64,000 nucleotides of DNA from Cyanidioschyzon merolae. Its lineage: Eukaryota. Each line of letters begins with the position of its first letter. Positions within the stretch are counted from its first letter, which is position 1. The stretch is from NCBI GenBank assembly GCA_000091205.1, contig AP006500.2; one strand, given 5' to 3'. The translations under genes and the position numbers were made by a program. Shown one piece after another: positions 14,560 through 63,600 of the stretch. The notes under the pieces are model-generated. The model ran no database searches. It worked only from the letters and a program-made list of their open reading frames with translations, and was not told where the DNA came from.

Positions 14560-15080
14560 TCAGCGAGTCATCCGTCCGCAGCACACGCGGGCGTACGTAG
14601 TACCATTCTATAGACGATTTGGGGAGCATGATATCGTGCATGACGAAAAACGATCAGAAGGAAAACCTAGCTGGAGAACAAGTCAAGAAATGTCGACCCG
14701 TATACGCTCTCTTCGTACAAAGCAGAGACGCACCTTCGACATGAAGCGATCACAGCAATGACTAATTTCCGAGTCCGATACCCTTTTGGATGCGAACCGA
14801 GGACACAGGAGCCTCTGGGAGCGTAGCCCGGTAAAGGTGTCTTGTAGCTGCGTAAACCTATATCAACGATGATCAATCAGAGAAACGTACTTGTCTTTCG
14901 AACGGAATCGATGATTTGAAGTGACATGTTCAGTGAGCTCGCGGCAAGAGCTCGTGAAGATGTTGTTAATTGACGACTGCTTGACTTTTAGCTGGTCAAT
15001 GCGGCAGCGCGAAGTGCTCTGCCTACGAGCTGTCTTTAAATAACAAGCTCGAAAGCTTGTCGAATGTGCAATATGAGTTT
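14560..15080 (-). repeat. Partial copy of the dispersed repeat superfamily (core2 'GCTGGAGAACAAGTCAAGAAATGTCGA' at ~14672, core1-complement at ~15045)
   Basis: The segment 14600-14700 aligns with 29620-29700 of the IR arm ('gcatgatatcgtgcatgacgaaaaacgatcagaaggaaaacctagctggagaacaagtc' versus 'gcacgatgttgcccacgacgagacacgcaccggaaggagaatccaggctggagaacaagtc'). A second core lies about 370 bp away. Confidence 0.5.
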
Positions 15081-16430
15081 GCTTCACGTAAGGAAATCAG
15101 ACAAGTGGAGGCTTATATGTATGAACAGGATGATGATATCTATTATTTCGCGAAAGCTAGTTCGTGTGCATTGCGAACCATCGAAACGGTGGTGAAGTAA
15201 TGAATTCCTGCCGCAGTGAGTCGCAGGAACCACTCCGAAAAGAATCCCAAGAATCCGAAACCTCGTCTGAACACGTGAACCCGCATTATCGCACTTCGAA
15301 AGCGGAGGCTGTCCATCTTGCAAACGCTACCAAAAATTGACAGACTGGAAGAGAGCGAGCAGCACAGCCTTCCGCTTCAGTCTGAGACGGGTGTCGCGTA
15401 TCGTTCCGAATAGGCATGCCTATACACAGTCCTGGTTGCACAGCCTATCGGGGCCTGAACTGACAATGGGCTCTCGTCCAGCCCTTGTACAGAAAAGCGT
15501 AAAGGAGTTGCGAAATCGTCTTTTTCTTCGTAAAGTGTTATCGAGGGCTCTAGATCGATTGTGCATACCATTGGCAACCACTTGCTGGGTAGTGCCCGAT
15601 TGCAGTGAACATTGTCGAAATGATAGATCAGTCCCGGATCGGCTCTCGCAGACGGAGAGCGCGTATGAGCGTTCCTATGCTCTTGGCTGAACGCCCTGTT
15701 CTCCATCTATAGGCGGTACTTTTTGCACTGCCTCCTATTCTTGTGCTTCTGCATAGTTGAACGATTGGTAAGGATCTTCGAAAAATCATGGTAGAAAAGG
15801 TGTCTCTTTAGTCGGTGCAGAATGATCTAGGGGAGGACTCGGAATGGAGCCTGCCTCGGACTCCGCAATCACGGATTCCTTCAGATTGTCTACGAATGTA
15901 AACCAATGAAACTTCTTCTGGCCTTAAATCGCGCCTTGGAACGCACCTCTGTCTCTGGATCCGCCAATTACTTCACAACATCCATCTTAGTAAACCAGTT
16001 CAACTTCTGTGTTCCATAAGAGGGCCTGCCTTGTATGTTCCGATTCATTAATTCCAAGAGCCTTGCTCTAAAATTGTATCACTACTGATCTCGTGAAACA
16101 ACATCATTGGTGGTGTTCATTTACATATCTTTATCGGATATTCCGCAGCATGCGAGCGCCGCTTCGAAGTGAAAATTCCGACGCAAAAGTCTGGCCCAGG
16201 ACCGTTCACGTGTAGCTGTGTCTACAGCGGCTCGGTTGTCAATGCTCTAGCTGCTGTAGACAGACAAGGTTCATGGGGTTTTAGCTGCAGCCATCGGCTT
16301 CATATCAAAAACATCAAAGCAGAAAATCCATATAGCGAACGGGCCGGGATAAAGCACTGTGCATGTTGAGCTTTTTTTCTGTATCCAAGAAACGCGACTC
16401 AAGTATTGCGGAACCATGATGGATGCCCAT

Positions 16431-17177
16431 TCACAGGTTATCCTCTTTTGAAATAGATTCAAAGAAAGCCTGTTGTGACTGCTCAAAGTGCACAAGCCTC
16501 ACACCATTCTGTAAAAGTTTCTGTCTCATGCATTTGAATCCATCGATCGTGATCGCTTTGGTAGCGTTCTCGACAAGCAGGACATCAAAACCTATCGCTA
16601 TTGCATCTAGAGCTGTGAGACCGACGCAGTAGTCATAGGCGAGGCCACAGATAAAAACACGCTTGATGCCGAGTGTATCCAGGATATGACGGAGACCAGT
16701 TTCCGTACCGGTCTCGTCCCGAAACGCTGAATATGAGTCTCTATCCACAGTGGTACCCTTCTCAAAGATGATGTCTCTGTCCTTGTCTACGACCAAGTCC
16801 GAGTGCAGCTCGGCTCCCCAGGTGTTCTGAACGCAGTGGTCGGGCCACAAAACGCGCTTTTCTATTGAGTTGTCTGAAACCTCAACTTGTTCGAAGGGTC
16901 GCTTTCCCGGATGGGAGCTGGCGAATGAGATGTGTTTTCGGGGGTGCCAGTCCTTTGTGAACACCACTGTCTGAAAAAGCCTTCGAAGCCGGTTCGCTAG
17001 AGGGACAACTTGTTCTCCATCCGTCACGTAGAGCGCTCCCCGTTTGTCCGCAAAATCGTTCTGCACGTCCACAACGAGCAAAGCACAGTCTCTCTCAAGG
17101 CTGTTCAGACTGCAGGCTGCGCACCGCTGAACCTCCATACGAGAGTGCTTCTGGGCACGAGAGAACCAATACGTCAC
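16431..17177 (-). CDS. Nicotinamidase / isochorismatase-family hydrolase
   Basis: 248-aa ORF with 'ALLVVDVQNDFADKRGALYV' (catalytic Asp region) and 'VFICGLAYDYCVGLTALDAIAIGFDVLLVENA' (catalytic Cys region), as in PNC1-type nicotinamidases. Confidence 0.7.
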   Translation of the reverse strand: MTYWFSRAQKHSRMEVQRCAACSLNSLERDCALLVVDVQNDFADKRGALYVTDGEQVVPLANRLRRLFQTVVFTKDWHPRKHISFASSHPGKRPFEQVEVSDNSIEKRVLWPDHCVQNTWGAELHSDLVVDKDRDIIFEKGTTVDRDSYSAFRDETGTETGLRHILDTLGIKRVFICGLAYDYCVGLTALDAIAIGFDVLLVENATKAITIDGFKCMRQKLLQNGVRLVHFEQSQQAFFESISKEDNL

Positions 17178-20264: not shown

Positions 20265-20606
20265 GCAGTTGCATACAAAGCGGGACGGTTAGCGCTCTGC
20301 TGAGTAACGATAGGCAATAACTTTGTATCGAAAACAGCAAACTCGCTTGTAGTGCGATCGAGATGCTATATAAAAATGGATCTTTTTGGACATCAAATCC
20401 GAGTCGCCCACACAAACGGCGTGGGGGAAAACCCTCGTTGCCTGCTATGGCATATGCACGTCGACTTATGTCGGAATGAAATGGAAAAGTCCAGCCAACT
20501 CGGGGTTAAACTTTCAGACTTTGATCACTTGGGACTGTAATCAACACCAGCTTGTACGAAATTTCTCTTCGACTACCTTCGTGTCTTTCTCTCGAATCGC
20601 TGACTT

Positions 20607-21108
20607 TTAATACGTCGGTATCTCCGTGCTCTCAAGGCCCATATTTTGCTGTCCAAAGACGTTGATGGCAGCCTTGAAGTCCCCATTTAGCAGCGCCCAG
20701 CTATTGACGACGCATTTTATGCTTAGGAGGACGTCGCGATTCACGAATCGCTTCCCATTTTCATCTACTTTGTATTCAGCCCAGGTCTGCTCTTCGTAGG
20801 GGTGAAACTTGACCGCGATCACGTGTTCCATTGTGTCCGCTAAAATTACTCCTCCTGCGGATGCCACGCTGTGGTTCACGAAAGCTTGGTTCATAGCGCA
20901 TTATATGCCTTTGATGAGCATAGATGGCTCCGTTCGCCATTTTGATCAGCTTCTGGACCCGGTGCCACACCTTACGATAACAGGCTTTCTCTGGGCGATC
21001 CCCTCGGGGAGTATTCTTTCCACTGTACACGCAAGAGCTCCAAGCTCCATTCCATAGCTTCCTATCTGGCTCCTTGCGCGCTCTTCGTTTTCTGCCTACT
21101 CTTCCCAT
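20607..21108 (-). pseudogene. Degenerate TnpB/Fanzor-like (RuvC-III region) remnant, copy 1
   Basis: Overlapping minus-strand ORFs in different frames. Contains 'GKRFVNRDVLL...GDFKAAINVFG', and the nucleotide segment 'cgattcacgaatcgcttcccattttcatc' is homologous to the copies at 23.2k, 27.8k and 53.85k. Confidence 0.4.
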
Positions 21109-22299
21109 AAATCCTGCCGATGAGCTTGATGGGCATCAAGGTACCTGAACCGATCAAGAGCAACGTGTCCGCACTTTCCATGCGCTTTCGACAAGGCAGT
21201 AACGGCCTATGAAATTCGTTCCTGTTTCGCTCCCTTGAAGTAACATTCTCTCATTCCGTTCCTTCTCCTAAAAAAGAACATGAAAGGTGTGTGAGTAGAA
21301 CACAAGAATGTAGGTAAAATTCGGAGCGTTGGAGACATCCGGCTCTCGAGCGTGGCCGTTGACGACAGGGGTCGGTGTCCTCTTCGGGTGTCATGGAATC
21401 GCAGTTGCAAAGGCTTATCCTCCATGGATACATGCCGGTGCAGTTCGCATTGAGGACAAAGTTCGCAGGACTATGCATCCGCATTGCTCGGCGCTGCTCG
21501 GCGTAGCTCCCTTTCTGGGCATGGGTACATGTGCGCACTGTCGGTCATGAAGCGTGCAGGACGTTCGTGGATGGTGTTGAATGTTGCCTCGCCAGCGGTC
21601 TCGATGGAGGGCAACTGTTGCCCTATGTATAGTGCAAACCGCCTGTACCTCCCTTTTTCTTCCCATTCGCATCTCTCTTTGCTTTCAGTCGATTTTTGTT
21701 CATCCAACAGTTTACAAGTTCCTTCTAAGCTTCGAGTGAAAATTGCAGTGTTCCCTTCATCATGTCTTCGCCCGCAAACATCTACTCTTCGTTTTCAACG
21801 CTGTCGTTTTCCACCGGACGCATCTACGCCTAGTTTGCGAGGATGCCCCCTCTACAATGAAGCGAAAAGCGCGCGAATCAAGACGCTGGTATAAAAGACC
21901 GAGAGATTCATTCGAATTAGGCAAGATTATTTCCGTTAGGGGCGCTGGAACAGCACGCCACATGCAGAAGCACCATCGCTTTCGTGTGCGGGTTACTCAC
22001 AGGTGGTGGATCCACCTTATTCTCGGCGTCGTCGCGCTTGAAGGATCTTCTATGGAGGTGCTTCATGGACTAGGTATTCTGCGAGCCTATTAAGCCTCGC
22101 CGAAGAGCCACTTGTGAAGAGCTATCTCATGCTGCTGACTGAGTTGCCGACCTCTGACTATGCTGCATCGAATCCCCCATGTTGGGAAGGAGACTGACAG
22201 CTGATTGGCAATTCGAAGTGAATAAGAACAGAAACCAGCACCCAGCGAGAAATTGGATGTGCGTTCCTCTCTTCCTCCTGCATAAGATATTGAGGAAGA

Positions 22300-22750
22300 A
22301 CACTTTACGTGTATTTGGAAGTTTATCTTATACGCGAGAGGTCCGTCGAGACGAAGCACTCTACCGGACGAGTCCTTCGCGCGCTCCCCGGGTTGGCTGC
22401 TTTCGCGAAACCTGAACATATCGTCTGGAACGCAGTTTTCTTTCTGGCTACGAGTTGGCGGACTGTTTCTGAACTTCGCCACGGTCGCTGTAATCTCCCA
22501 GCTTGTCGTTTCGCGCCGCCTGCAGCCTGTTTGAGCGACCTTCTGAATCCCAGAATGAGGATGAGTTTCGACCCTGCGTCGGGTAAAGCAATTTGGTGCC
22601 GACGCCCCCATGGTATGGCAAAGCCCTTCTGTCCCCGTGCTGCATCCTCACCGGCGCTGTGGGCCTCATTGTGAACGCTCACAGCTGGCTCGACGCACGA
22701 TGGAGCGATTGGAAAGACAGTTATCTTAGAGAAGAATGATATGTACAACC
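22300..22750. repeat. Fragment related to the 1.38-kb direct-repeat family
   Basis: Minus-frame peptide 'MRPTAPVRMQHGDRRALPYHGGVGTK' (22669 downward) parallels 'MTPIAPVRSLHGGRTALPYHTEGVGS' of the DR copies (36972 and 47630 downward). Nucleotide identity is about 75% ('gccgacgcccccatggtatggcaaagcc' versus 'gccgacgccctctgtgtggtacggcaacgcc'). Confidence 0.45.
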
Positions 22751-23059
22751 TGGTGGAAATTTCAGGCTGGGCGATATGATGGACGGTTTCTCGGATGCCG
22801 TGATCAGTCGCGCAGTTAAACCCCTCTGTCAGTGTAAATATTTTGTCGTTTAAAAAATTAGAAAAAAATCACATTCGACGCGCCGCTGTTCGAAGTGATC
22901 AGATAATGAATGCTGTAGCAAAAAGATGGACAGAGTCTGTGCTGTCCTATTTATACAAATCGTCCGTGGAACAAACAATGTTTTACGAGCATGTGGAATA
23001 AATTAGTATCCACTCACAGATGCCTTCCATCCTTTTTAAGCGTCCGACTGCTATCGGCT

Positions 23060-23326
23060 TCAGCTTCTCCAAGCGCATTTCGACTCTGAGAGGTTGCCCC
23101 AAAAATTTGCTCGTGTCAGCCCCTCGGGTACCGTCTTCAGCACCGTACATCTCCTGACATTTATGACAGCGTTCCAGTCTCGATTCACGAACTCCATGCA
23201 TTTCTTGCCGCTGTTTGAACTCACCAGTGCAAGGAGAACTCGCGCGCCTGCCTTTTGTACCATTTGCTGCTTCGTCAGCTCTGGGTGCCTATCTACCACC
23301 GAAGCGCTCCGCTGCCTTTCCGCCAT
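23060..23326 (-). pseudogene. TnpB/Fanzor-like C-terminal remnant (RuvC-III motif), copy 2
   Basis: 'GKKCMEFVNRDWNAVINVRRCTVLKT': a Cys, then the 'RDxNAxINI' motif, which is the hallmark C-terminal catalytic motif of TnpB/Fanzor RuvC-III. It lies directly 3' of the transposase remnant on the same strand. Confidence 0.5.
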
Positions 23327-23470
23327 CTCTACCCTCTGGAGTGTACATCAAAGCTCATCCCTTAGAGTTTTTATTTTTTCTAACTGAATGCACTTCTTTA
23401 TGCCACCAGGAGAGGATCTTTTCCGAAAGAGAAGCATTTGCGGAAGACAGATGAAATGTGCCAGGATATG

Positions 23471-25673: not shown

Positions 25674-25754
25674 CTCAGACCGCTGGGAGTCTGCATACTG
25701 CTTGACCCGCAGACCGGTGCCGTCGACAAGCGTTCAAGTTTTCTTAGGGTACCT

Positions 25755-27146
25755 CTGTACCCTTGCCAGTCTAAAACGGAGCACTGAACTGCTCGCCATG
25801 CTCCTGCATTTCGGTATTTTCCGAACATTTTTTCGATGTGCAGCCTCGACAATCGAAGTGAAGCAATAACGGCGTACGGTTTCATAAGTGGTTTTACGAT
25901 TCTCGCGCGTATTTTGGGAGTGACTCGGTTCACGCCCTGCCGCTGCAATTCGTCACATTTCATCAATCAAAGTGCACCGCGCGGCCCTGGAGCATGCGTT
26001 CGCACGGTAACCGACATCAGTTTGCAAGCCGAACGCCCCAGCGTCCGCTCCTGCCCTCTCCTCCCCTTGCGCGTGTCATGCTCAAACCACGCATTCTCCA
26101 AGTCTTCGATTCTTCCGTTTCGGGGCACCTCGTGGGGGCAGCTATTCGCGCCGATGGATTGACGAGCAAAATACCACACGTAGTCTATTGGCGACTTGTG
26201 CACAAGCTCATGCCGAAAGCTCCCTGCACTCGGCACGTCAAATGAACGATTCCGTTCGATAGACAAACCCTCCTTTCTCTGTAGCTATCAAGGAGACGGC
26301 ATTCGACATCAGCATGGTACCATACACAAAGAATCCACCAGGAAGCTCCAGTTTCTTCCGTTTGCACGGAAGACGGGCGTGAACTCGGGCTTTAGTCATT
26401 GCACGGACCGTTTCCAGTGGGGAACGCATCTCTGTTTCGCGCCACTGGAATATAGACAGATCGAAACCTCTCGACTTGTTCTCCAGCCTGGATTCTCCTT
26501 CCGGTGCGTGTCTCGTCGTGGGCAACATCGTGCCCCGCGAATCCTCTGTCGAATAGCGCAGGATGCGCTTCCGAGTGCGCAGCGGACAGAGTTCTCGCTG
26601 GAAGCATGGCCCAGCGGAAGCCCCAGATCATGGGGTACGGTTCAGTGCGCCGAAGCGGAGGTGGGCGTCCACGCGCGCCTTCTGCACCGGTCAAGGGCAT
26701 GTGCCGAGCGCTGAAGCAAGCCTTCAGGTGCCACAGGGCGGCGCGCGAGCTCGGATGTCTGATGGACATACAGAAATACCTGAACACAGCCAAGTGCCAC
26801 AGCGGCGAAGTGCCTACTGAGCCGTACGGAAAGAGGACGAGAAAAGCGCGCAAAGCGTATATCGCAAATTTCGTACTTGCATGGAATGTGTCGCCAACAA
26901 CCGGTAACAGCTGCATAGGGACATGAACGCTGCCACCAACAGCCTTCGACAATGTGCACTGGAGCTGGTGGGAAAGGGGGGTATGATGCATTTAAAGCCG
27001 GAAGTAAGAGGGAGGACACCGAACCGGTCACCGAAAAAGCCGTGAAAGGCTGGTATTGATGGCAGTGGCAGGAGAGGCCCAACCTGTTTGTGTGCGTGTC
27101 CCCGGATAACACAGTGGACCCGTTCCATTTTAGCCTGACGTAGATG
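25755..27146 (+). repeat. Left arm of a large inverted repeat (~1.39 kb); member of the dispersed repeat superfamily
   Basis: The reverse complement of 29024-30405 matches almost base for base. The ORFs of the two arms mirror each other (25836..26162+ = 29998..30324-; 25967..26266- = 29894..30193+). Boundaries were fixed by direct comparison of the junction sequences. Small indels between arms include 'ccccactggaaacgg' versus 'ccccacggaaacgg'. Confidence 0.85.
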
Positions 27147-28016: not shown

Positions 28017-29023
28017 CCCCGACTTCCATATCCATATCTCTCACTAAGACCTTTTTAAAATAAACACACTTCGAACGTATATGCTATAAACCACAAAAGA
28101 TAAGCATTTGATTCCACTCATCTGGGCGTGGAACACAATTGAAGAAAAAGACTACAAGATACAGGCAGCCGTTGCTTTCAGGAATACGGCACGCGTTGGA
28201 GTTTGGATCATGAACCTGGACGCTGGCGGCGGTCGTCGCAGCCGCCGCTGCCGTCTGCGGCCTCAGCGTCAAAGAACGGCTGCATTAAATTATTTTACTC
28301 GAGGGCATCGCCTTCTTCTATACTGCTGAAGCATACAGACGTTATTTCTTTGTTAAGCTTGCGCTTAACGCTCGACACCCAAGCTCGCGATTGTTGTCCA
28401 ATAGCATGGAATCTCTCTCTACTGCACCAAGGGATGAGCGCTTTCCCCACACGAACCAGACGAGGAACTGCTGGGTTCGCTACGTTGAGTGGAAACTGTG
28501 CGAAGAGAAACACGGCGAGGAAGAGTCCGAGTGCAAAAAGTTTGGTCGTTGGGCACGCGCACTTTGCCCAGTAGACTGGATCGAGCGGTGGGATGAACAG
28601 CGAGCAAACGGGACGTTTCCTGGGCCCTCCGGCGAGTCCTCGTGAGCATATGGCGCTGCATATTTCAGTGACTACGGGCTCCGCGGAAGAATTGGAACTT
28701 TCCTAGTACTGCTTTTTCTGACAGATTGAGGCGAAAGGTTCTGGGCGACTTCCTCGACGGAGAAATGTTTTCCACTCGAAAGAATATCATGCATATGGTT
28801 CTACAACCACAAAACAACAGCAGGTCTGTGTCGTATGCGACTTGCGAGTTTTATGGCCTACCTCCTGGTCTCTTGTCATGAACAACGGCGCGCCATGTGA
28901 AAGCATGGAAGCCCATCATCACTTGAGAGAATTTGATTGAAATTCTTTGGACCAGAGGAGAAATATAATCACACTCGGGAAGTGCTTATGGCGATGTTTC
29001 TCTTGTTCGCTAGACATCTACGT

Positions 29024-30405
29024 CAGGCTAAAATGGAACGGGTCCACTGTGTTATCCGGGGACACGCACACAAACAGGTTGGGCCTCTCCTGCCACTGCC
29101 ATCAATACCAGCCTTTCACGGCTTTTTCGGTGACCGGTTCGGTGTCCTCCCTCTTACTTCCGGCTTTAAATGCATCATACCCCCCTTTCCCACCAGCTCC
29201 AGTGCACATTGTCGAAGGCTGTTGGTGGCAGCGTTCATGTCCCTATGCAGCTGTTACCGGTTGTTGGCGACACATTCCATGCAAGTACGAAATTTGCGAT
29301 ATACGCTTTGCGCGCTTTTCTCGTCCTCTTTCCGTACGGCTCAGTAGGCACTTCGCCGCTGTGGCACTTGGCTGTGTTCAGGTATTTCTGTATGTCCATC
29401 AGACATCCGAGCTCGCGCGCCGCCCTGTGGCACCTGAAGGCTTGCTTCAGCGCTCGGCACATGCCCTTGACCGGTGCAGAAGGCGCGCGTGGACGCCCAC
29501 CTCCGCTTCGGCGCACTGAACCGTACCCCATGATCTGGGGCTTCCGCTGGGCCATGCTTCCAGCGAGAACTCTGTCCGCTGCGCACTCGGAAGCGCATCC
29601 TGCGCTATTCGACAGAGGATTCGCGGGGCACGATGTTGCCCACGACGAGACACGCACCGGAAGGAGAATCCAGGCTGGAGAACAAGTCGAGAGGTTTCGA
29701 TCTGTCTATATTCCAGTGGCGCGAAACAGAGATGCGTTCCCCACGGAAACGGTCCGTGCAATGACTAAAGCCCGAGTTCACGCCCGTCTTCCGTGCAAAC
29801 GGAAGAAACTGGAGCTTCCTGGTGGATTCTTTGTGTATGGTACCATGCTGATGTCGAATGCCGTCTCCTTGATAGCTACAGAGAAAGGAGGGTTTGTCTA
29901 TCGAACGGAATCGTTCATTTGACGTGCCGAGTGCAGGGAGCTTTCGGCATGAGCTTGTGCACAAGTCGCCAATAGACTACGTGTGGTATTTTGCTCGTCA
30001 ATCCATCGGCGCGAATAGCTGCCCCCACGAGGTGCCCCGAAACGGAAGAATCGAAGACTTGGAGAATGCGTGGTTTGAGCATGACACGCGCAAGGGGAGG
30101 AGAGGGCAGGAGCGGACGCTGGGGCGTTCGGCTTGCAAACTGATGTCGGTTACCGTGCGAACGCATGCTCCAGGGCCGCGCGGTGCACTTTGATTGATGA
30201 AATGTGACGAATTGCAGCGGCAGGGCGTGAACCGAGTCACTCCCAAAATACGCGCGAGAATCGTAAAACCACTTATGAAACCGTACGCCGTTATTGCTTC
30301 ACTTCGATTGTCGAGGCTGCACATCGAAAAAATGTTCGGAAAATACCGAAATGCAGGAGCATGGCGAGCAGTTCAGTGCTCCGTTTTAGACTGGCAAGGG
30401 TACAG
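29024..30405 (-). repeat. Right arm of the large inverted repeat
   Basis: See the left arm. Terminal junctions are 'acatctacgtcaggctaaaatggaac' (inner) and 'gactggcaagggtacag' (outer). Confidence 0.85.
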
Positions 30406-34982: not shown

Positions 34983-36080
34983 TGGCCAACAGCGCCCGCG
35001 GTATATATGCGAACGAAACGGCGAATAGAGACCCTACAGGCTGTCGTACGAGTAAGTCGCCAGCTGTCCATGCGGTAAGCGCCAGTTGACACCTCGGGGC
35101 TATTTCGATTCCGCACCCGCAGACATTGATCCGTCTGTATTGGACCGGATGTCAAACCGGTAGCATGGGAGCTAGGATTTTCGATACGGACGCGACGGCA
35201 ATCGCATGTTAGTCTGAGCGTTGCTCCGCTTGTGCGAGCTCTCGAGACAGACTCGGATACGAGAGCTGGTACCCGTCTGCGATGGACCCGCTTGGACTGC
35301 TACCTTGCACCGGCGCTCGCGGGAGATAGGAAACTAGAATCCTATCTTTCTGTCAAAACCTTCCTGGAATTCCCTTGGGGTGCTTGATTCTATTCAGCGT
35401 TCTTCAGTCTGGAACTGGCGGGTGCCAAAGTGTTGCTGTTATTCTGATAGTTTCACTCATGCAGCAAAGGCGAAGGCCCTCTCGAAGACGCAGCAATGCT
35501 CCGCGCTTGCCGTCTGGGCGCTGATCTCTCCCCCCTCCATTCTAGACAATTACCGATGCTCTTGGGATTCGCTCTGGCCATCGCTTCTCGCGGGGCCAGC
35601 TCAGGGCTTGAACGACAGCGCGGCCTCAGCAAGTTGGGTTATTCTCGTGAAGGCAAGTCGGTTGATTGCATGCTGCACGCGCTACTATTCCGTACGGCAG
35701 AACGAGCGTTCTAAACCAGCGCCTACGGGTCGCCTTTCGAACGCTGCAATTCCTCTCTGGTGACCTGACAGGAGGGCTCACCCAAGATCTCGCTTGCTCG
35801 TAGGGCTCTCAGGGCCGCGCCACTGAATACTGACGCAGCCCACTCCTGCAAACTTTGACGATACAGAACCTGCGGCCTTTGAGGCTTATGAAGCGTGCCC
35901 CGTGGGGCACGCATTCTGCATTTGCGTCGTGACTCCACAGCAGGGCAGCCGCCAATGCAAACAGCCCGTAACCATCGGGCTCGCGTGTGCGGCCTGTTAC
36001 CGCACGGTTAGCCTGTCACCAGGAGGCAAAAACACTTGTCAGGCTCAAAAGATGCATTGCAATCTTCATTTTGTTCCCGC

Positions 36081-37460
36081 CTTTCGATCGTTTCCCGAAT
36101 GTTCGCTAGAAACACAGCTGCAATATTCAAAGTGCAGCAATAACGGCGAATGGATTCATGGGTAGTTCTATGCCCCTCGGTTGTACTATCCGTAGGGATC
36201 CCGTCGACTCCCTGCCGCTGGCATTCGATACGTCACCGGGATCAAGATGGTTCGTGACGCCCTCATACGCGGGTTCGTAACATAGCCGATATCATCATCT
36301 CATTCAGTCGCACGCGCCTGCACTCTTCTGTTTTCCTCAAGTATAGCATGCTTGAATCATGCATTCTTCAAGTTTTCGATATTTCTCCTTAAAGGCAACT
36401 CGAGGGCGCAGCAATGCGTACAGCTGGGTGGACAGCGAAAAGAATCGCAACGACTTCACTTGAAGACTTTGTCACATGCTCATATCGAAGGCTGACTACA
36501 ATTGTCAGGTCAGCTAATCGCATCCGTCCGAGAAGGAAATCCGCCCGTCCTTGAGACAAGCGGCAACGTGGCGTTCACAGCCGGCGAGATAACGCTCACG
36601 GCATACGTCCCCAGAGGCTTCGCTCGCTTCCGTACACACCGAAGAAAATCGGAGACTCAGACCTGAGTTATCGCAGCGACCGCGCCAGATAGAGAGTCTG
36701 GCACCGCCTTGCACGGAGGAAGCGTAGACGGATCGAAGTTTTCTAGAATTGCGCTCCAGCCTGCATTTTTGCCTCGCGGTACATGGTTCACCACGAAAAG
36801 CTTCCCGTTCCACGAATCCTCCATCGAATGCGACACTGTGCACTGGCTTGCGCTGGCTTGCACTGGCTTGCGCTGGCATTGCCCCGCACTGCCTCGAGCC
36901 GACGCCCTCTGTGTGGTACGGCAACGCCGTTCTGCCTCCGTGCAGCGACCGCACTGGCGCTATAGGCGTCATTGCTGTCGCTTTCGGCAGGCACTAGGCA
37001 CACACGATAGGACGTATGAAACGACTAGAATATCCGGGAAGTAGTGTGGGTCATGGAACTTGGAGGCAGGGCGTTCGATGGCTACTTCACCGCACACAAA
37101 CAAAAAGAAAACAAAAAGTGCACAATCGGAGAACGCTGGCCTAAGTAAGCATTTTGTCAGTGAGAAAAATCCGACACTGTGTTCGCTGAGGGCATTGCGC
37201 TGATGCAACCTGCCAGCGAAGCGCACGGCAGCGAGCCCGCAAACTGAGAAGAGCATCGTGGTAAGCCTTCGATACTCGTCAATTGCATGGAACGAGCGAA
37301 AACGCGAGCTGTACGACGCCTCAAAACGGCCCTCCGAGGAAGAGGAGCAGGAGCAGGAGAGGCTTTGGTGGATATACGGGAACACCTGACCACAGCCAAA
37401 AGTCATCGATGCGAGGACGCACAGAGGCTGTATACAATGAAGATGAAAATGGCAAGCGAA
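36081..37460 (+). repeat. Direct repeat copy 1 (1.38 kb), a divergent member of the dispersed repeat superfamily
   Basis: Essentially identical to 46739-48119 at an offset of 10,658 bp. The embedded ORFs are identical (36514..36972- = 47172..47630-; 36709..37044+ = 47367..47702+). Only two single-residue differences were seen in the translated ORFs: H versus Q, and M versus R. Confidence 0.9.
36844..36883. repeat. 10-bp minisatellite (CTGGCTTGCR)x3-4 inside DR copy 1
   Basis: 'ctggcttgcgctggcttgcactggcttgcgctggcattgc' read directly. The mirrored copy is at 47502-47541. Confidence 0.8.
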
Positions 37461-38360
37461 GCGCAGGCTGCAACAACCGTCCGCGCAACAAGTGCGTCGA
37501 CAACTACCGAACGCAGTAAAATCGGGACTTTACCACCACCGCCATCAATATCCTGCGACTGCCGAAAACCTAGCCAGAGAAGATAGGAACAGGAAGCAGT
37601 CACAGAAAAAGCCCGCACACGCTAGTCTCGATGCCAGCTCGAAGACATCCAGCCGTTCAGATTCGCACTCGAGCGCGCAGCGAGCACCGCAGCGTATACC
37701 TAGCGGACACGTATGTCGGACCCGATCCAACTGGAGGCCCCTGTGCGCTGCTTCGTTGCTGGCGGGCAACGCGCAAGCACGCGCGCGGCGCCGTTGACCG
37801 CGAGATCGACGGCGGGTATCTCACGCGTTGCGCGAGCGGCTGTATGCGATGGCGCGCGCATCTGCAAACGCCGCCTCTGAAAATATCTGAGGAGCGGGGC
37901 GTACACGCGGCGCCGAGCGTCGCGTCTCGAGAACGTTTCGCGGGCGATCCTGCGGCGAAGGCGCGCTTCGTCTCGACATCGCTAGATGCTGTGCGCTGCA
38001 TTATCGAATGCAGCTGCGCGTCAGCGGTGATATCTTGTAGCTGCAGTGCTGTGACGTGAGCGACCAGTTGCTCGATATTTGCGTGAGACTTCGAATCAGC
38101 GCTATAATATCATAGTTGTGGAGGTTGACGGCTTCTTTGACTGGTTCGAGGGGTGAGCGACTACATCTACTAGAAGCAGTGAGCAAAGTCCGGACGGCGG
38201 CGGCGGCGGCTTCTAGAACCTCGGTACGCTGAGGGTTTGGCACGCGCAGGCGCAACCGAGCTCGAGAACGCAACTCCTGGGGCGAATTTGTGCCAAACTT
38301 TTTAGGTTGTTTTCTTGAGTTTAGTTCGTCTGTGGGCGGCTAGAGTGTCGGCGCGGTACG

Positions 38361-45328: not shown

Positions 45329-46738
45329 CCTGCTCCCTCGCCAGCGTCGTGTGTCGACGGCAAGGAGTACTCAAGAACCTCGAAACGCACCCGAACCGCA
45401 ACACAAAACCGGCAATCACGACACGCTTGCACTAGCTATCGTAAGCACTGGAAGCTCCTGAGCTGTTTCAGTCTCCCCGTTTTGCAAGCCCCAATGAACT
45501 ACAAACCAAAGCGCACCAGCAGTTTATCTCCAAGCCACAAACTGACAAAACTGCTGCCCCGAACGAGCCACAGACACTATACCAATAACAACCCGCCGTG
45601 TGGACTTTCAGAAAACAAGCCCGGCAACAAAAACTATTGCCGCGGCTTCAACCAGTTGCAAGCCAATGCGTCGATAGATAATTAGCAACGCTTGTTGCGT
45701 CGTCCGCCGTCGCTGCAGCCGCGTTGCCCGCTGGATCGCGCAGATCGCGCCCATCCCCGTTGCTGTTGCGCTTTTCTTTAAGGCTGCGACGGCGCGCGTG
45801 CGCTCGTGCACCGCGTGGAGGCTCCCCGGGCGCTGCTGTTGCTGCCGCGCGCTTTAAACCAAACAGACACGCCCTCGACGACGGGGACGGCGATGGATGT
45901 CACATGTGACATCCGGCGAGACCGCATGAGTGGCGCTGCGCTCCCGCGTCCGCGACGTGCCGTGGTGCGAGCGCGGGGCGCGATCGGAATGGGAAATTGG
46001 ATAATGCAGACAATGCGGACAGGCTGCGCGGGCGTCGATTTCTTGCTGATCCCGTGGCGACGCGTGCGGGTTGTGTGGAAACGGCAGCGGGCAGTCATGC
46101 CGTGCACCGCATGCCGTCGCTCGGTGTTGGCCATGGCGGGGCGGTGGCGCACGCGCTCCTCATTGATAGGGGATTCGCGGTGGTAGAAGACTCGGACTGG
46201 GTGTTATGCTGGAGTGCCCAGTTTGAAGTCACCTGCCTGAAAGTGCGTCTTCGCTCGAAAACTGCGAATTCCGAAGGTGTTTCTGGTGCCTAGATGTCCA
46301 ATCAGCAGTGGTTACGATGGAGCTCAGTTTCTGAGTGACCTGGTGCGCTGACGGTAGCGTGACGTCGCTGCATTTGGGCCTCGGCCATGGTCTCTTCGAA
46401 GCGCAAACCTCCTTTATGACTGCGTAAGCCAGTCTGTTTGAAAAGATGTGTGGAATCCGTTTACCTCCACGGTCCACAGGATGAAAGACGCTGATATACC
46501 CACTTGATGTTTGACATTGCGGTACAAGACAGACAATCGCAGTTGCCTTGCTCCGAGGCTGCATAGTCGGTGTGCACGGTGTCGTCCGTGGGAATTTATC
46601 ATGATGCACTGATTGCGACAAATATCGCTGCGGCTTATTGGTACACGCGGATGAACAAAATGCAGCTACTTGGCCCCAAGCTCTGCTGAACCCATTTCGG
46701 ATAAAAATGGAACACTGAAATGCTCGTAGTGTTATTTT

Positions 46739-48119
46739 CTTTCGATCGTTTCCCGAATGTTCGCTAGAAACACAGCTGCAATATTCAAAGTGCAGCAATA
46801 ACGGCGAATGGATTCATGGGTAGTTCTATGCCCCTCGGTTGTACTATCCGTGGGGATCCCGTCGACTCCCTGCCGCTGGCATTCGATACGTCACCGGGAT
46901 CAAGATGGTTCGTGACGCCCTCATACGCGGGTTCGTAACATAGCCGATATCATCATCTCATTCAGTCGCACGCGCCTGCACTCTTCTGTTTTCCTCAAGT
47001 ATAGCATGCTTGAATCATGCATTCTTCAAGTTTTCGATATTTCTCCTTAAAGGCAACTCGAGGGCGCAGCAATGCGTACAGCTGGGTGGACAGCGAAAAG
47101 AATCGCAACGACTTCACTTGAAGACTTTGTCACATGCTCATATCGAAGGCTGACTACAATTGTCAGGTCAGCTAATCGCATCCGTCCGAGAAGGAAATCC
47201 GCCCGTCCTTGAGACAAGCGGCAACGTGGCGTTCACAGCCGGCGAGATAACGCTCACGGCATACGTCCCCAGAGGCTTCGCTCGCTTCCGTACACACCGA
47301 AGAAAATCGGAGACTCAGACCTGAGTTATCGCAGCGACCGCGCCAGATAGAGAGTCTGGCACCGCCTTGCACGGAGGAAGCGTAGACGGATCGAAGTTTT
47401 CTAGAATTGCGCTCCAGCCTGCATTTTTGCCTCGCGGTACATGGTTCACCACGAAAAGCTTCCCGTTCCACGAATCCTCCATCGAATGCGACACTGTGCA
47501 CTGGCTTGCGCTGGCTTGCACTGGCTTGCGCTGGCATTGCCCCGCACTGCCTCGAGCCGACGCCCTCTGTGTGGTACGGCAACGCCGTTCTGCCTCCGTG
47601 CAGCGACCGCACTGGCGCTATAGGCGTCATTGCTGTCGCTTTCGGCAGGCACTAGGCACACACGATAGGACGTATGAAACGACTAGAATATCCGGGAAGT
47701 AGTGTGGGTCATGGAACTTGGAGGCAGGGCGTTCGATGGCTACTTCACCGCACACAAACAAAAAGAAAACAAAAAGTGCACAATCGGAGAACGCTGGCCT
47801 AAGTAAGCATTTTGTCAGTGAGAAAAATCCGACACTGTGTTCGCTGAGGGCATTGCGCTGATGCAACCTGCCAGCGAAGCGCACGGCAGCGAGCCCGCAA
47901 ACTGAGAAGAGCATCGTGGTAAGCCTTCGATACTCGTCAATTGCCTGGAACGAGCGAAAACGCGAGCTGTACGACGCCTCAAAACGGCCCTCCGAGGAAG
48001 AGGAGCAGGAGCAGGAGAGGCTTTGGTGGATATACGGGAACACCTGACCACAGCCAAAAGTCATCGATGCGAGGACGCACAGAGGCTGTATACAATGAAG
48101 ATGAAAATGGCAAGCGAAA
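46739..48119 (+). repeat. Direct repeat copy 2 (1.38 kb)
   Basis: See copy 1. Junctions: starts 'ctttcgatcgtttcccgaatgttcgc', ends 'gatgaaaatggcaagcgaa'. Confidence 0.9.
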
Positions 48120-48814
48120 TATGCATCGAAACATCTGCATGCGCATGAAATGTGTTGAAAACCACTGGAAGCAGCAAAACAGGGGCTTTAAATCTGCAGT
48201 GAACATCTTCCGATCGCTAATGATGGAGCTGGAAGGAACGGAGACACCGTCGTATCTCAAGTCGGAGCTCGAAGAGAAGGAAGAAAATCAGCCGCGAAAA
48301 AGCCCTTAATGCCTGTTGCTGACGGCAATTGGAGGATACCTAAAATTCAGTATTCACGTTCGAGGTAGAATAGTGTATCCGTTTCATTTTATTCTGAGAG
48401 AGGTCTAGCTCATGGCAGCTATAGAAAATGACTCACTGACTGGCTGCCACTTGCGATGAAGAGCTTGCATAGCAGGTTCTTTTCTAGATCGCAACACCTA
48501 CTGCAGGACCAGAGCTTGGGACAGTATCGTGAATAAGTGTTGTGCTTTGAGAAAGCGGCTGCACGGGCTCTGTACCAGAACGACAAGCGCGGTGAGCCCG
48601 CTACGCTGAAGATGCATTCGCGTTCGAAGCAGCGGCACACACAAGTGCGGTGCTGTCGCCCGCTAGCGCTGGGAGCGCTCCGCAAGCACACTCTTGAGGG
48701 CAACTTTCCCATCACGAGTCGAGTACTTTCACGCTTGCACAGTTCTAGAGCCGCGAGAGGCAGCACGCACAACTTCGTGGCCGCTGAAGCAGACGGCGCT
48801 CCTCGAGTTCGAAG

Positions 48815-51499: not shown

Positions 51500-52099
51500 T
51501 GATGCACGTGCCGTTCTGATCAGCGTTTCAGTACAGTGGGCGTTGTATCCAGGGGTGTAGGTAGCGCTCAGCCGCGTTGCCAAATGTGGTGGCTTCTGTA
51601 GCGGCTTCGATGGATTGTCCTTGCGAGTACGAGGTGCTGTCCGCATGAACGCGCACGCTCTTCTGGAGTTGCTGTTTGTCGAAGACCTGTTCGCCCCTTC
51701 TTTGGCATATGTGTTCGTGCAGTATCGATTTTCTCGACGTTGCGAAGCAGGGCGGATGTGCTGCTCTCATGCTGCTCGTTGCGGTAAACGTATAGATCAT
51801 CATGCAAGCTCAGGGGTGTTTCTTCGTTTTGAGCGTGCATCTACAGGTTGCAGGTCAGGAGGCACTCTCAAAACAGGTGTGCCTGGTGAAAAGCGCGCTA
51901 CGATGCCTGGAAGAGAGTAGTGGAGGCTTCCGGTCTCTTTCGGATCTTCGTGGCAGACTCAGCGCCCGGACGGTCGCTGAGTCTGCCAAATTGTTTTCTT
52001 AGAGTATGGTTGTTCAGTTTGTGGAATCTGGACACATCGCCGCTACATCCATTTTACATTAAAGAGGGACACGTTCTCGAACGCTGACGGACACGCTCA

Positions 52100-53110
52100 A
52101 ATTCTGGCCTTTTTTGATTGCCATCATCATAAGCATTTGCAGGATGTTTCTGCGGATGCTTCATTTTCCTCTTCCTTATCTCCGGATTGTAAAACGCAGA
52201 CCTCTACTGTCGCTTTTTTTCTAGTGCAAGGTGTAAAAGGACGTTGTTGGTAGCGCCAAATGCCCGATTTCGTAGTTTTCCGCTGTTGTCGAAGCTTGTT
52301 ACGCACAGAAGGAAGCTGCGATCTACGCTTCGATTGCCGTTTTCATCTTCCTGTGTACAACTTGTCGGCCTGCTTGGCAGCGATGACACTTTGCTATGGT
52401 CAGATGTTCCGGTATGTCTCGTGCAGTAAGTCCTGCTTCTAGGGCCATCCTATGATTCTTGAACGCTCGCCCTGCAGCTCGGTAGAAGCTTTGGACGAAA
52501 AAGAGGGCTTTGCTCGATGCCTTCCTATTTTGTCGTGATCGCTATCGTCTCATACGATCACGAGCTTCCTCTGGAAGATTCCCTGGACGAGGACTCTGTC
52601 CGCTGCGCATGGGAGCGCATGCTTTTTCACTAGAGATGGGATTTGCGGAACGCGATGTTGTCTATGATGAAAAGTACCTGAAAGAAAATCTACGCTGCAG
52701 AACAAGTCCAGAAATTTCGATCCATCTACGTGCTCTTCGTCGAATGCTGCATCACGTTTTGCATTGCAAGCGATCGTACCGATGGCTGAATTCCAAGTCC
52801 AGGACCCTTTTCCACACAAGCAGAAGAGAAGGAAGCCTCCGAGAGCGTATTCAGTGATGGGATTATGGCGCTGTCGATTGCTGTTTCAAGGGCGGCCATG
52901 ACGAGAGTGGAATTTGTCCTTCGAACAGAATCGATTGTTAAACGTTAGAAATTAAGTGGGCTTTGAGCCTAAGATTGTGAATAGGTTGTCAAAGGGCGAC
53001 GTCGAGTATTTTTTTGCCGTCAATGCAATGGCGTGAGTTGGTGCGTCTACTAGTTGCCTCGAAACAGGGATATCGCAAACTTGGGGAATCTACGATTCGA
53101 GAATGCTGCA
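52100..53110 (-). repeat. Partial copy of the dispersed repeat superfamily (core2-complement at ~52690, core1-complement at ~53090)
   Basis: 'ctgcagaacaagtccagaaatttcgatccatctacg' matches 'gactggagaacaagtccagtattttcgatccggatacg' at 63150. The 52128-52400 region aligns with 62596-62830 ('cataagcatttgcaggatgtttctg' versus 'cataagcgtttgcagaatgtttctg'; 'ggaagctgcgatctacgcttcgattgccgttttcatcttcc' versus 'ggaatttgcgatctacgcttcgcttgccactttcatctcc'). Confidence 0.6.
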
Positions 53111-53587
53111 CACGATGAACGGAGAATCGGGGCTTGGACGCATGCACTGGATAATTATATAGATTGCATGGCGAAGCCTTGTCCAATGTCATTGCAAATT
53201 ATGCGGGTTACGGTAAAGTAACCAAATCTAGCGGCGAAGCATACATTGCGCGACTCCGAAAAGACGAGCAAGCACTCCAAAACTAAGAATGAATTCGTAA
53301 GCCCATAATCTTGCATTTTGAATGTCAAGTATATTCATCGGGAAAAACGAAAGGAAACCACAGAGCGCGCTATTCAGTATTCCATTTTCATCTGATGTCG
53401 GTGAAGATATCAGAGCTAGGTCCCGGCGATCAACAACGTTTTGCAAAACCCGAACATTTTTGTTCATCATGTTCGATTCTGTGGCATGACAAACGCCGAA
53501 GGCGTCATACCCATTTGCGTCTGCTGGAACAAGCGAGTCTCTGGGAAGGCGCTGAAGTCTCGTACCCTGATCGTTGGCAGCGATCCC

Positions 53588-56527: not shown

Positions 56528-56777
56528 TTGCAATCGATTTGTATCCTCTTTCGCTGTCGGCATGCACTCTATCTAGCCCCTGTTGTGCACGACAAACCCA
56601 AGCTGTATCCAAATCGAATGCATCAAAAGCGAATATAGCCATCCGAACGTAGCTTGTAAACGAGCACGGGAAGGCTCTGGAAACAGCCGCCCCGGACGCA
56701 CTGCAGCTTCGTATCCAGCTTCGGTCGCAGCACCTCTGAGTATCCGACACTGAGCGCTAAGCTTGGCGAACATCTTT

Positions 56778-62482: not shown

Positions 62483-62569
62483 GCGGGCAAACCTAGTACT
62501 CCTTCACCCATTTTCGAGAAAAAATGGATGCATCCATTTGGTTACCTCGGGTGTGAAAACAGAAAAGTT

Positions 62570-63600
62570 TGAGTCTCTTTCCGATGTCATCACCATAAGC
62601 GTTTGCAGAATGTTTCTGTAAATGCGGCATTTTCCTCCCCGTATCAGTGAAGTTTAACGTCGCTGATCTCATCTGCCTCTTCACATCCGTTGTCAGCCGT
62701 CGAAGGATGTTGATTCTGGCGTTATAGTCCCGAATTCATAGAATCCGGTTGTCTTCGAATCATAGCATACACAGAGGGAATTTGCGATCTACGCTTCGCT
62801 TGCCACTTTCATCTCCATTGTGGTGAGCATCCGCGCGCCTTTTCCAGAGAGGTCCATTGGATTTGGTCAAGTTTTCTCAGATGGCTGCCTTAGGTCCACC
62901 TCCGAGAGCAGTCGAGCGACACGTTGACGCTTGCTTCATCATCCGGTGCATGTACTTTATAAGTACTGGAGGCCCTGCTGAATACTCTCCTCCGTTCCCG
63001 CACCCGGTGCCGTATCCTACGATCACCGGCTTGTTCTGGGTGATACGCGGAACGCTTGCTCTGACCGGTTCGTGTGCGATCTCACGTTGTTCCGTCGAAT
63101 AGGGATTTGTGGAACGCATTGTCTTCCATGATGGAAAACTATCGAAAGGAAAATCCAGACTGGAGAACAAGTCCAGTATTTTCGATCCGGATACGCTGCC
63201 GTCGTGCAACGCGGTGACACTCACACCAATCCTAGTGATAGTACAGGGCCGAGTTCAAGACTCGTCTTCGCACGAGCAGAAGAGAAGAACACTTCCGGAA
63301 GCATTACCTGTGAATGGTATCGTGTTTATGTCGTATGCTGTCTGGTGGATGTCCGGAAAGAGAGGAGGATATTTCTTTAGAATTGAATCGAATATTTTTC
63401 GTTACAAGTTTCAAGAAGTTTCCCGATGAGCTTTTGAAGAGCCGCCAAGGGACGGCGTCGAGTTTTTCTCCTCGTCAAGACATCTGCGCGAACTGCTGCG
63501 CCCACGAGCTGCCCTGACATAGGAGGATCGAAAAATTGAAGAATCCGTGATTGAAGCATGCGTTACGTAAGGAAAGGAGTGGATTGGATGTTTGGACGTA
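62570..63600 (-). repeat. Partial copy of the dispersed repeat superfamily at the window edge (core2-complement at ~63150, core1-complement at ~63525)
   Basis: 'ctggagaacaagtccagtattttcgatcc'. 'ggaggatcgaaaaattgaagaatccgtgat' is the reverse complement of the core1 type 'attcttcaagttttcgat...'. The peptide 'LQSRILQFFDPPMSGQLVGAAVRADVLT' (63377..63559-) parallels 'LKPRILQVFDSSVSGHLVGAAIRADGLT' (26.06k+). Confidence 0.6.

Follow-up and report, generated by a model that had tools for sequence, protein, structure and literature searches.

Two documented systems, one similar in architecture and the other in host, bear on the dispersed repeats of Cyanidioschyzon merolae that are the subject of this analysis. 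PUl-1 of Pythium ultimum combines Tc1/mariner with Fanzor1: an HTH+DDE_3 transposase lies upstream, Fanzor1 lies downstream, and short terminal inverted repeats mark the ends (PMC3627910). Fanzor1 elements have also been documented in C. merolae itself; one of these, CMe-1A, was reported to have neither inverted repeats nor a transposase and was left unclassified (Bao & Jurka 2013, PMC3627910). P-MITE reports zero MITEs for this alga (PMC3964958).

The repeats are found in a window of 64,000 nucleotides of contig AP006500.2, the whole stretch of DNA that was analysed. It is highly probable that they represent, in decayed form, a single ~1.38-kb non-autonomous DNA transposon family of C. merolae 10D, a deletion derivative of a transposase+Fanzor1 element. 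The family resembles PUl-1 in the respects just named, with an HTH region that is putative, and its restored transposase has the same Pfam architecture as that of PUl-1. It differs in carrying a ~2-kb deletion (from the C-terminal third of the transposase through Fanzor1 residue ~550), in being non-autonomous and specifying no functional protein, in its red algal host, and in that no TA target-site duplication could be made out. With CMe-1A (TE-N2_CMe) it shares the genome, the relationship to Fanzor1 and a similar age (a reported ~80% identity to consensus for CMe-1A (PMC3627910) versus ~75-77% for the repeat); unlike CMe-1A, it has inverted repeats in its consensus, as well as a DDE_3 remnant.

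Intact composites exist in two metagenome contigs, L124 (ENA k141_1966962) and L123 (JGI Ga0102680_101607), where an intact DDE_3 gene stands directly upstream of Fanzor1, which is the architecture predicted for the parent of the repeat. In contrast to the repeat, these are full length, with a 395-aa transposase of DD34E spacing (as read from the sequence) and a Fanzor1 protein of 662-698 aa. They are only ~30% identical to the repeat in the transposase and are accordingly cousins rather than the parent; a full-length parent of the repeat lineage was not found.

Copies and ends

The window holds seven full-length copies and one 5'-truncated copy (Table 1), located by nhmmer profile, self-BLAST and tblastn. 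The original prediction was of seven copies, each with two conserved boxes (core1 and core2) at a fixed distance of ~365-370 bp, and of 60-75% identity between subfamilies. Pattern search, self-BLAST and profile search place all seven where they were said to be; the boxes are 358-368 bp apart and the identity comes to 64-73%. (A technical note: the pattern search for core1, which allowed up to 3 mismatches, finds it at 26092, 30050(-), 36362, 47020, 53072(-) and 63527(-), with a chance expectation of 0.03; the search for core2 finds it at 26459, 29671(-), 52691(-) and 63156(-), with a chance expectation of 0. The copy at 14.6-15.1k and core2 of DR1 and DR2 have diverged beyond the pattern search and were recovered by self-BLAST and profile search.) The truncated copy retains only transposase codons ~235-260 and the Fanzor1 C-terminal part (tblastn: B_Tpase 235-260 and B_Fz 1-156, E=4e-34); a 95-aa ORF with 'YKVDENGKR...GDFKAAINVF' lies inside it. 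Copy IR-L is used as the representative for feature coordinates.

Table 1. Repeat copies and their features in the window (core1 and core2, the two boxes)
Feature	Position	Strand	Remarks
Copy '14k'	14019..15393	-	73% identity to family consensus; nhmmer profile, consensus mapping, tblastn with restored transposase and Fanzor parts
'14k' boxes	core1 15066-15048; core2 14698-14668	-	
5'-truncated copy	20522..21061	-	nhmmer profile positions 6-536
Copy IR-L	25758..27146	+	full-length; 77% identity to consensus
5' terminal inverted repeat, IR-L	25758..25782	+	family consensus CAYCCRTGTCAGAWTAAAATGGAAC
Decayed transposase part, IR-L	25836..26570	+	consensus codons 1-~245; Pfam, blastp
core1, IR-L	26092..26110	+	transposase codons 84-90 'RILQVFD', winged-HTH region (aa 72-124)
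First catalytic Asp, IR-L	26290-26298	+	'IDET', DDE_3 core
core2, IR-L	26459..26490	+	transposase codons 207-217 'GSKFLDLFSSL', DDE_3 between first and second Asp
Second catalytic Asp, IR-L	26518-26526	+	'MDN', DDE_3 core
Internal-deletion junction, IR-L	26558..26615	+	transposase codon ~245 joined out of frame to Fanzor1 residue ~545-565
Decayed Fanzor1/TnpB C-terminal part, IR-L	26615..27069	+	Pfam, blastp
Zinc ribbon, IR-L	26783-26806	+	'TTAKCHRC...CMKC'
RuvC-III, IR-L	26914-26943	+	'NRDLNAAINI'
3' terminal inverted repeat, IR-L	27122..27146	+	
Copy IR-R	29015..30402	-	full-length; core1 30068-30050, core2 29702-29671
Copy DR1	36027..37715	+	full-length, with nested insertion; core1 36362-36380, core2 36731-36763
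Nested insertion in DR1	36890..37159	-	CMe-1A 5' terminus, consensus positions 4-258, inverted; nhmmer E=3e-30
Copy DR2	46686..48405	+	full-length, with nested insertion; core1 47020-47038, core2 47389-47421
Copy '52k'	52046..53403	-	full-length; 75% identity to consensus; core1 53090-53072, core2 52722-52691
Copy '63k'	62505..63874	-	full-length; 75% identity to consensus; core1 63545-63527, core2 63187-63156

Homology is not confined to the two boxes: it is continuous throughout the ~1.38 kb. The alignment consists of 12 distinct copies; seven further distinct copies are from hot-spring metagenomes, and six copies were fetched via core1. Aligned end to end, the 12 copies are ~64-68% identical in pairs, and their conservation sets in abruptly at consensus position ~149 and drops off as abruptly at ~1528; the flanks outside are unrelated. 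In the consensus, the 5' end and the reverse complement of the 3' end match at ~22 of 25 positions, forming terminal inverted repeats of ~25 bp (score 21 versus 7.7±1.5 in shuffles, P<0.0005); within individual decayed copies the inverted repeats are significant in only one of the 12. A TA target-site duplication is expected of Tc1/mariner elements. None is consistent at the 12 junction pairs, where the copies are old and the termini uncertain by a few bases, nor is one seen at the sharply defined ends of IR-L and IR-R.

Might segmental duplication or recombination, instead of transposition of a deletion derivative, have dispersed the copies? Two young pairs lend themselves to this reading. 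IR-L and IR-R, 1.9 kb apart, are 99.9% identical, and the arms of their inverted repeat (25755-27147) match the IR-L element ends within 1-3 bp; they may have arisen by gene conversion, or by recent duplication or mobilisation. The interior of DR2 (46739-48190) is 98% identical to DR1 while the termini have diverged, a signature that points to ectopic gene conversion between old insertions. Conversion accounts for these two pairs only, however. The same two end points recur at twelve loci in unrelated flanks, the consensus has inverted repeats, and the star-like pairwise identity of ~65% is typical of a transposition burst, all of which makes segmental duplication very unlikely as the general mode of spread.

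Remnants of two genes

The consensus of the 12 copies restores two stop-free ORFs, of 261 codons (P=6e-6 by chance) and 165 codons (P=5e-4). Reading frames had been described as unpreserved between copies, and a protein-coding remnant had been ruled out. The description holds for single decayed copies, with their stops and frameshifts, but not for the consensus; the conclusion was mistaken, since the consensus matches both DDE_3 and Cas12f1-like_TNB above their curated cut-offs and the L124 transposase with E=4e-23.

The first of these parts, which in IR-L comprises two putative HTH regions and a DDE_3 core, matches Pfam DDE_3 (PF13358) when restored (E=9.9e-10; 38.9 bits versus a cut-off of 28.6) over profile positions 3-102 of 146, and the consensus motif at the second Asp reads 'MDNIAFHKS'. 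By blastp it aligns with the intact 395-aa L124 DDE_3 transposase colinearly from Met1 (MYSVD vs MYSLD) through the second Asp, and with the PUl-1 Mariner transposase at E=1.7e-6. The Pfam HTH matches on the consensus are weak taken alone (HTH_33, E=0.005; HTH_Tnp_Tc3_2, E=0.005; HTH_Tnp_4, E=0.08); consensus residues 1-124 are colinear with the L124 N-terminus. The third catalytic residue is absent, the 'PPYSP.NPIE' region having been deleted, and the triad is incomplete, which makes this a non-autonomous derivative.

The second part consists of the ~165 last codons of Fanzor1, including the 'KKPVIVGYG' strand that precedes RuvC-II. Its consensus matches PF07282 (Cas12f1-like_TNB) with E=4.2e-6 (27.2 bits versus a cut-off of 26.3); blastp finds Fanzor1 P0044 (E=1.3e-6) and residues 565-681 of CMe-1p (E=1e-3), and the Fanzor1 proteins matched (E=1e-6 to 1e-3) are invariably matched across their residues ~540-680. 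The C-terminal motif of Fanzor1, [TS][TS]-x-x-CxxC...CxxC...RD (PMC3627910), is restored in the consensus as 'TTAKCHRC...CMKC...NRDLNAAINI', a C4 zinc finger followed, after x(5,50), by RD. Neither the RuvC-I Asp nor the N-terminal two-thirds of the protein (WED/REC) is present: what lies 5' of the junction is transposase sequence. The deletion junction is common to all copies analysed; the spacing of its anchors has a modal value of 95 nt (mod 3 = 2) and is out of frame in 7/11 copies.

The repeats had also been proposed as the long terminal regions of the Fanzor transposons whose remnants lie at 20-24k, 27.8k and 53.7k; in the version considered here, they would be long terminal or subterminal regions of CMe-1A-type elements. 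A link to Fanzor transposons there is, in that each full copy holds its own Fanzor1 remnant, but the copies are not the termini of their CMe-1A-type neighbours. Proximity is real for the remnants at 27.7-28.1k and 53.7-54.2k, which lie within 0.5-2 kb of repeat copies, but the copies at 14k, 36k, 47k and 63k, as well as the metagenome loci, have no CMe-1A neighbours. Part of the 5' terminus of CMe-1A does lie inside DR1, at the transposase/Fanzor junction (blastn, 76.5% identity), and inside DR2 (blastn match 47550-47728); it is nested there in inverted orientation, and none of the other ten copies has it. The family profile finds no match in the 3169-bp CMe-1A consensus (nhmmer), and the Fanzor tail of the repeat, only ~24% identical to CMe-1p, is therefore that of a paralogue. 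With sharp ends and inverted repeats of their own, the repeats are complete and separate elements, and it is highly improbable that they were ever CMe-1A termini. (At 23.1-23.9 kb, a DDE_3 remnant lies immediately upstream of a CMe-1A-type Fanzor tail.)

The two boxes

If the repeats are decayed transposons, why do two boxes stand out, and at so constant a distance? The original answer was a non-coding functional module (a promoter paired with a terminator, a structured RNA, or sites bound by transposase), its ~370-bp spacing held by selection at the nucleotide level. In the window's own copies core1 and core2 do rank 5 and 12 of ~1330 windows. Among six copies that were not selected by box, mean pairwise identity is 0.73 in core1 and 0.71 in core2, and neither value exceeds the best window obtained by column shuffling (P=0.65 and P=0.19, respectively); when six independent copies are taken, all fetched by their core1, core2 comes 418th of 1329. 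The boxes thus show no conservation beyond the chance maximum, the outcome that the original prediction had itself named as counting against it. In the window copies they are, by accident, the least altered stretches, and descent of every copy from one sequence accounts for their constant spacing.

Nor does an RNA emerge. The repeat matches nothing in Rfam at gathering thresholds, and no conserved consensus structure is found (alifold, -2 to -6 kcal/mol over 416 nt; 0 at the ends). The antisense alignment from core1 to core2 has a fold slightly more stable than its shuffled versions (z=-5), though at only -6.2 kcal/mol over 416 nt. Omega-RNAs are encoded at the 3' end of Fanzor; the 3' region here gives an alifold energy of 0, and the fold of the ancestral consensus has z=-1.7. 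From block to block, conservation varies a little more than shuffling yields (P=0.035-0.10), which may indicate mild rate heterogeneity along the element. Decay is otherwise uniform and neutral: mismatches to the consensus at codon positions 1, 2 and 3 stand at 0.249, 0.252 and 0.256, without codon-position bias. With the entire 1.38 kb homologous, with DDE_3 and TnpB frames restored from it and both boxes inside protein domains, a non-coding module is scarcely credible. There is equally next to no chance that the copies are, or recently were, working chimeric genes (a domesticated fusion of transposase HTH/DDE and Fanzor C-terminus): one can imagine DNA-binding HTH regions joined to a nuclease tail, and between core2 and the 'KPVIVGYG' motif the 63k copy has one frame free of stops, but stop codons number 4-10 and frameshifts 7-15 in each copy of the window, codon-position bias is absent, the ancestral junction does not keep the frame in 7/11 copies, and both catalytic centres are incomplete.

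Origin, decay and meaning

The deletion-derivative origin can be laid out as a short series of steps. 1) The founder is probably the product of one internal deletion within a composite element of Tc1/mariner-IS630 type, in which a DDE_3 gene was followed by a Fanzor1 gene. 2) What the deletion left is displayed by the copies: the inverted repeats, a 5' leader, transposase codons 1-~245, ~165 Fanzor1 codons and a 3' leader. With the third catalytic residue and the Fanzor1 N-terminal two-thirds (RuvC-I) gone, the element is unable to move itself. 3) Amplification would have been by cut-and-paste, driven in trans by the transposase of a full-length relative acting on the inverted repeats. 4) The family then died, and each copy went on to accumulate mutations neutrally, to a divergence of ~25% from the ancestral sequence.

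Ds, derived from Ac, and the precursors of MITEs are likewise internal-deletion derivatives that keep their inverted repeats and are mobilised in trans. The repeat is like them in its origin and mode of propagation and differs in size: MITEs are typically smaller than its 1.38 kb, and coding remnants are recognisable in it. With the remnants of two genes, it falls outside the MITE class (<~800 bp, with inverted repeats and a target-site duplication, non-coding).

A small chance may be allowed to a more adventurous extension: that the derivative kept just those parts that must be present in cis if it is to be mobilised and also maintained with the help of Fanzor (both inverted repeats, and the 3' end of Fanzor, which encodes omega-RNAs), that the IR pair records very recent mobilisation or homing of a copy otherwise decayed by 25%, and that a trans-acting DDE_3 transposase and/or Fanzor1 is still active. 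If so, C. merolae 10D retains a DDE_3 transposase and/or a Fanzor1 that works in trans on dead elements.

For the rest, the deletion-derivative family is ordinary transposon debris, not a new regulatory or RNA element, and the understanding of Fanzor or mariner elements is unchanged by it. The main value of the analysis is a clean negative: with a sufficient number of copies in the alignment and the ancestor reconstructed, the "two-box" repeat dissolves into neutrally decaying remains of a transposon. Along the way, ectopic gene conversion between dispersed dead copies is documented in a very compact algal genome. The Fanzor1 elements of C. merolae, unclassified in 2013, are tied to a DDE_3 transposase of IS630/Tc1-mariner type by the repeat family, the remnant at 23.1-23.9 kb and the intact metagenome composites taken together.

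Boxes, copies and ends of the repeat

The two boxes, core1 and core2, about 367 bp apart in each copy, lie where the original prediction had placed them. Pattern searching of the window returns 6 matches to core1 with at most 3 mismatches (0.03 expected by chance) and 4 to core2 (0 expected); core1 of the copy at 14-15 kb and core2 of DR1 and DR2, two copies in direct orientation, are missed because they are too diverged, and were recovered by sensitive self-comparison and profile searching. Homology is not limited to these boxes: self-BLAST aligns the copies over 0.6-1.4 kb at 64-73% identity, and profile searching with the copies in the window adds a truncated one (coordinates are collected in the table). 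Introns are few in the window, which is eukaryotic and has genes of algal type. Four of the encoded proteins are identical to C. merolae 10D BAM82583, BAM82586, BAM82588 and BAM82592, from a 1.25-Mb chromosome, and Rfam and tRNA scans find no match anywhere in it.

Screening loci from hot-spring metagenomes with the family profile yielded 7 more distinct full-length copies. The loci had been fetched by a degenerate core1 pattern, whose matches are mostly due to chance: ~17 of 120 are true family members, picked out by the profile. Pairwise identity among 12 distinct copies is ~64-68%, in a star-like pattern; the same ~1.38 kb aligns in all of them, between unrelated flanking sequences, and the steep rise in column conservation lies at consensus position ~149, its fall at ~1528. 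The ends of the consensus are inverted repeats of one another (CAYCCRTGTCAGAWTAAAATGGAAC; alignment score 21 versus 7.7+-1.5 in shuffles, P<0.0005). In single decayed copies the inverted repeats do not reach significance, and no consistent TA that would mark a target-site duplication is seen at copy ends, the exact termini of old copies being uncertain. A 25-nt match to the 5' inverted-repeat consensus (CCTTGTCAGATTAGAATGGAACACT) is also present on L125 (another metagenome; 49 kb), a contig that carries an intact Fanzor1 (P0002) of the type encoded by the published C. merolae element CMe-1A.

Restored reading frames and decay of the copies

The repeat had been taken for a non-coding element. 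Its majority-rule consensus instead restores two reading frames, intact in no single copy: each window copy is broken by 4-10 in-frame stops and by 7-15 indels that shift the frame, while the restored stop-free runs would arise by chance with probabilities of 6e-6 (261 codons) and 5e-4 (165 codons). The first frame, with its ATG at consensus position 227, encodes a 261-codon transposase that includes "FVAIDETAF" and "CFIMDNIAFHKS". It matches Pfam DDE_3 (PF13358; E=9.9e-10, 38.9 bits against a curated cut-off of 28.6) over profile positions 3-102 of 146 only, with weak Pfam HTH matches upstream, and is colinear with the intact 395-aa DDE_3 transposase of the metagenome contig L124 (E=4e-23). 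The colinearity begins at the first Met ("MYSLD" against "MYSVD") and reaches as far as the second catalytic Asp; the part that in L124 holds the third catalytic residue ("PPYSPWFNPIE") is absent. The 12-copy consensus also matches the "Mariner" transposase that Bao & Jurka reported for the Pythium ultimum element PUl-1 (E=1.7e-6); with a first, six-copy consensus, blastp against that protein was not significant and PDB searches found no match.

The second frame, of 165 codons, carries the TnpB/Fanzor C-terminal signature "KKPVIVGYG...TTAKCHRC...CMKC...NRDLNAAINI". It matches PF07282 above cut-off (E=4.2e-6); its matches to Fanzor1 proteins (E=1.3e-6 to 1e-3) are confined to their residues ~540-680. 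An HMM of CMe-1-type Fanzors reaches only E=0.4-8 on the repeat copies, yet always at the RuvC-III position; a 95-aa remnant ORF used as a protein-search query matched itself alone. In 7 of 11 copies the spacing across the junction of the two halves is 95 nt, which means that the transposase and Fanzor1 parts did not share a frame even in the ancestor.

Core1 falls in the winged-HTH region, at codons 84-90 of the transposase, and core2 at codons 207-217, within DDE_3 and between the first and second catalytic Asp. The suggestion that core1 is the Fanzor RuvC-I "DPG", and the repeat the 3' half of a Fanzor gene, is rejected because the Pfam and L124 alignments assign the core1-core2 segment to the transposase.

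Does any part of the repeat show more conservation than neutral decay would leave? Mismatch to consensus is equal at codon positions 1, 2 and 3 (0.249, 0.252 and 0.256), and the copies have therefore decayed neutrally since insertion. Core1 appears exceptional in the 12-copy alignment, a bias that was corrected for, six of those copies having been fetched through core1. In the six copies not so selected, neither box exceeds the best column-shuffled window (core1 P=0.65; core2 P=0.19). In the six independent copies, those fetched through core1, core2 ranks 418th of 1329 windows; block-to-block variance is marginally above that of shuffles (P=0.035-0.10). Thus the boxes are not more conserved than the surrounding repeat, the very outcome that the original prediction had named as counting against it. 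Folding of the consensus RNA gives essentially zero energy for the core1-core2 segment and both ends, and for the ancestral 3' region the fold is not more stable than in shuffles (z=-1.7).

CMe-1A relatives and young pairs in the window

Fanzor1 elements have been described in the C. merolae genome itself (Bao & Jurka 2013, PMC3627910). CMe-1A measures 3169 bp; its ~150 copies share ~80% identity with the consensus. It was not assigned to a class and lacks terminal inverted repeats, and TE-N2_CMe corresponds to the 5' 635 bp of CMe-1A (PMC3627910). The consensus of CMe-1A, and with it a 734-aa Fanzor1, come from the supplement of that paper; to this consensus the repeat family has no detectable nucleotide similarity except for a nested, inverted piece of the CMe-1A 5' terminus, 270 bp long, within DR1 and DR2. 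That the repeat is the TE-N2_CMe module in reverse is rejected because this piece is an insertion confined to those two copies.

Coordinates of repeat copies and transposon remnants in the window, and of related features on metagenome contigs
Feature	Position	Strand	Detail
Fanzor1 pseudogene	771-2162	+	stop-interrupted; 26% identity over 490 aa to full-length Fanzor1 P0042, E=6e-26
Truncated family copy	20522-21061		
CMe-1A 635-bp 5' module (TE-N2_CMe part)	22221-22848	-	complete; nhmmer E=4e-65
CMe-1A-type Fanzor1 C-terminus	23079-23358	-	residues 612-721
DDE_3 transposase remnant	23492-23854	-	L124 transposase aa 156-277, E=3e-11
IR-L, inverted-pair arm	25755-27147		element 25758-27146
CMe-1A-type Fanzor C-terminus	27736-27903		
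CMe-1A-type remnant	27736-28149	-	internal deletion
COX6B gene	28391-28645	+	
IR-R, inverted-pair arm	29014-30405		element 30402-29015
DR1, direct pair	36081-37532		nested insertion 36890-37159
DR2, direct pair	46739-48190		nested insertion 47550-47728
CMe-1A-type Fanzor C-terminus	53679-53923		
CMe-1A-type remnant	53679-54184	-	internal deletion
L124 (ENA k141_1966962) composite element	412-3541		intact
L124 DDE_3 transposase	412-1599		395 aa; DD34E spacing read from sequence
L124 Fanzor1	1553-3541		662 aa; start overlapped by transposase, 47 bp
L123 (JGI Ga0102680_101607) composite	748-3616		transposase remnant + 698-aa Fanzor1
L125 5' inverted-repeat match	12468-12492	+	

Transposon fragments are piled up on one strand at 20.5-24.4 kb, where the complete 5' module is flanked by the truncated copy (20.5-21.1 kb) and by the tail of a CMe-1A-type Fanzor. 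Upstream of that tail, at a distance of 134 bp, is a DDE_3 remnant with "LLLDNVIFHHS...PPYNPWFNPIE"; this suggests a DDE_3 partner for the CMe-1 lineage too, which was unclassified in 2013. In two other CMe-1A-type remnants the internal deletion is about the same (consensus ~791-969 joined to ~2831-3088), and they may constitute a second short deletion-derivative family. A third, distinct Fanzor1 pseudogene lies so close to the window start that any transposase upstream of it would fall outside.

The arms of the inverted pair IR-L/IR-R are 99.9% identical and coincide with whole elements within 1-3 bp, which fits either recent mobilisation or gene conversion confined to the homologous segment. 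The direct pair DR1/DR2 is 98% identical, an identity that characterizes its interior, nested insertion included; its termini differ by ~45%. That pattern indicates ectopic gene conversion between two old, dead insertions 10.6 kb apart, and conversion is therefore the more economical reading of the inverted pair too. The inverted pair brackets a 1.87-kb segment containing COX6B and a CMe-1A-type remnant, a layout resembling that of a composite transposon.

Origin of the repeat

Use of CMe-1p, the Fanzor1 protein of CMe-1A, led to two contigs with divergent full-length Fanzor1 proteins, L124 and L123; in both, the Fanzor1 gene is immediately preceded by one for a DDE_3 transposase. Given this composite architecture, the repeat is best explained by one internal deletion in such an element, a deletion that would have extended from transposase codon ~245 to about Fanzor1 residue 550; its product would then have been amplified in trans. 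The junction is common to all 12 copies, and the deletion therefore preceded amplification. Among the fetched loci there is no full-length parent of this lineage.

At the nucleotide level the repeat does not belong to the CMe-1A family; nor is it a MITE in the strict sense, a structured RNA or a functional gene. The repeat family may already be catalogued in Repbase. Association of transposases with Fanzor1 has previously been described in other taxa (PMC3627910). The C. merolae repeat passes the sequence-based tests except for a TA target-site duplication and a close full-length parent, and is best read as a non-autonomous Tc1/mariner-IS630 (DDE_3) transposon, probably derived from a Fanzor1-carrying composite.
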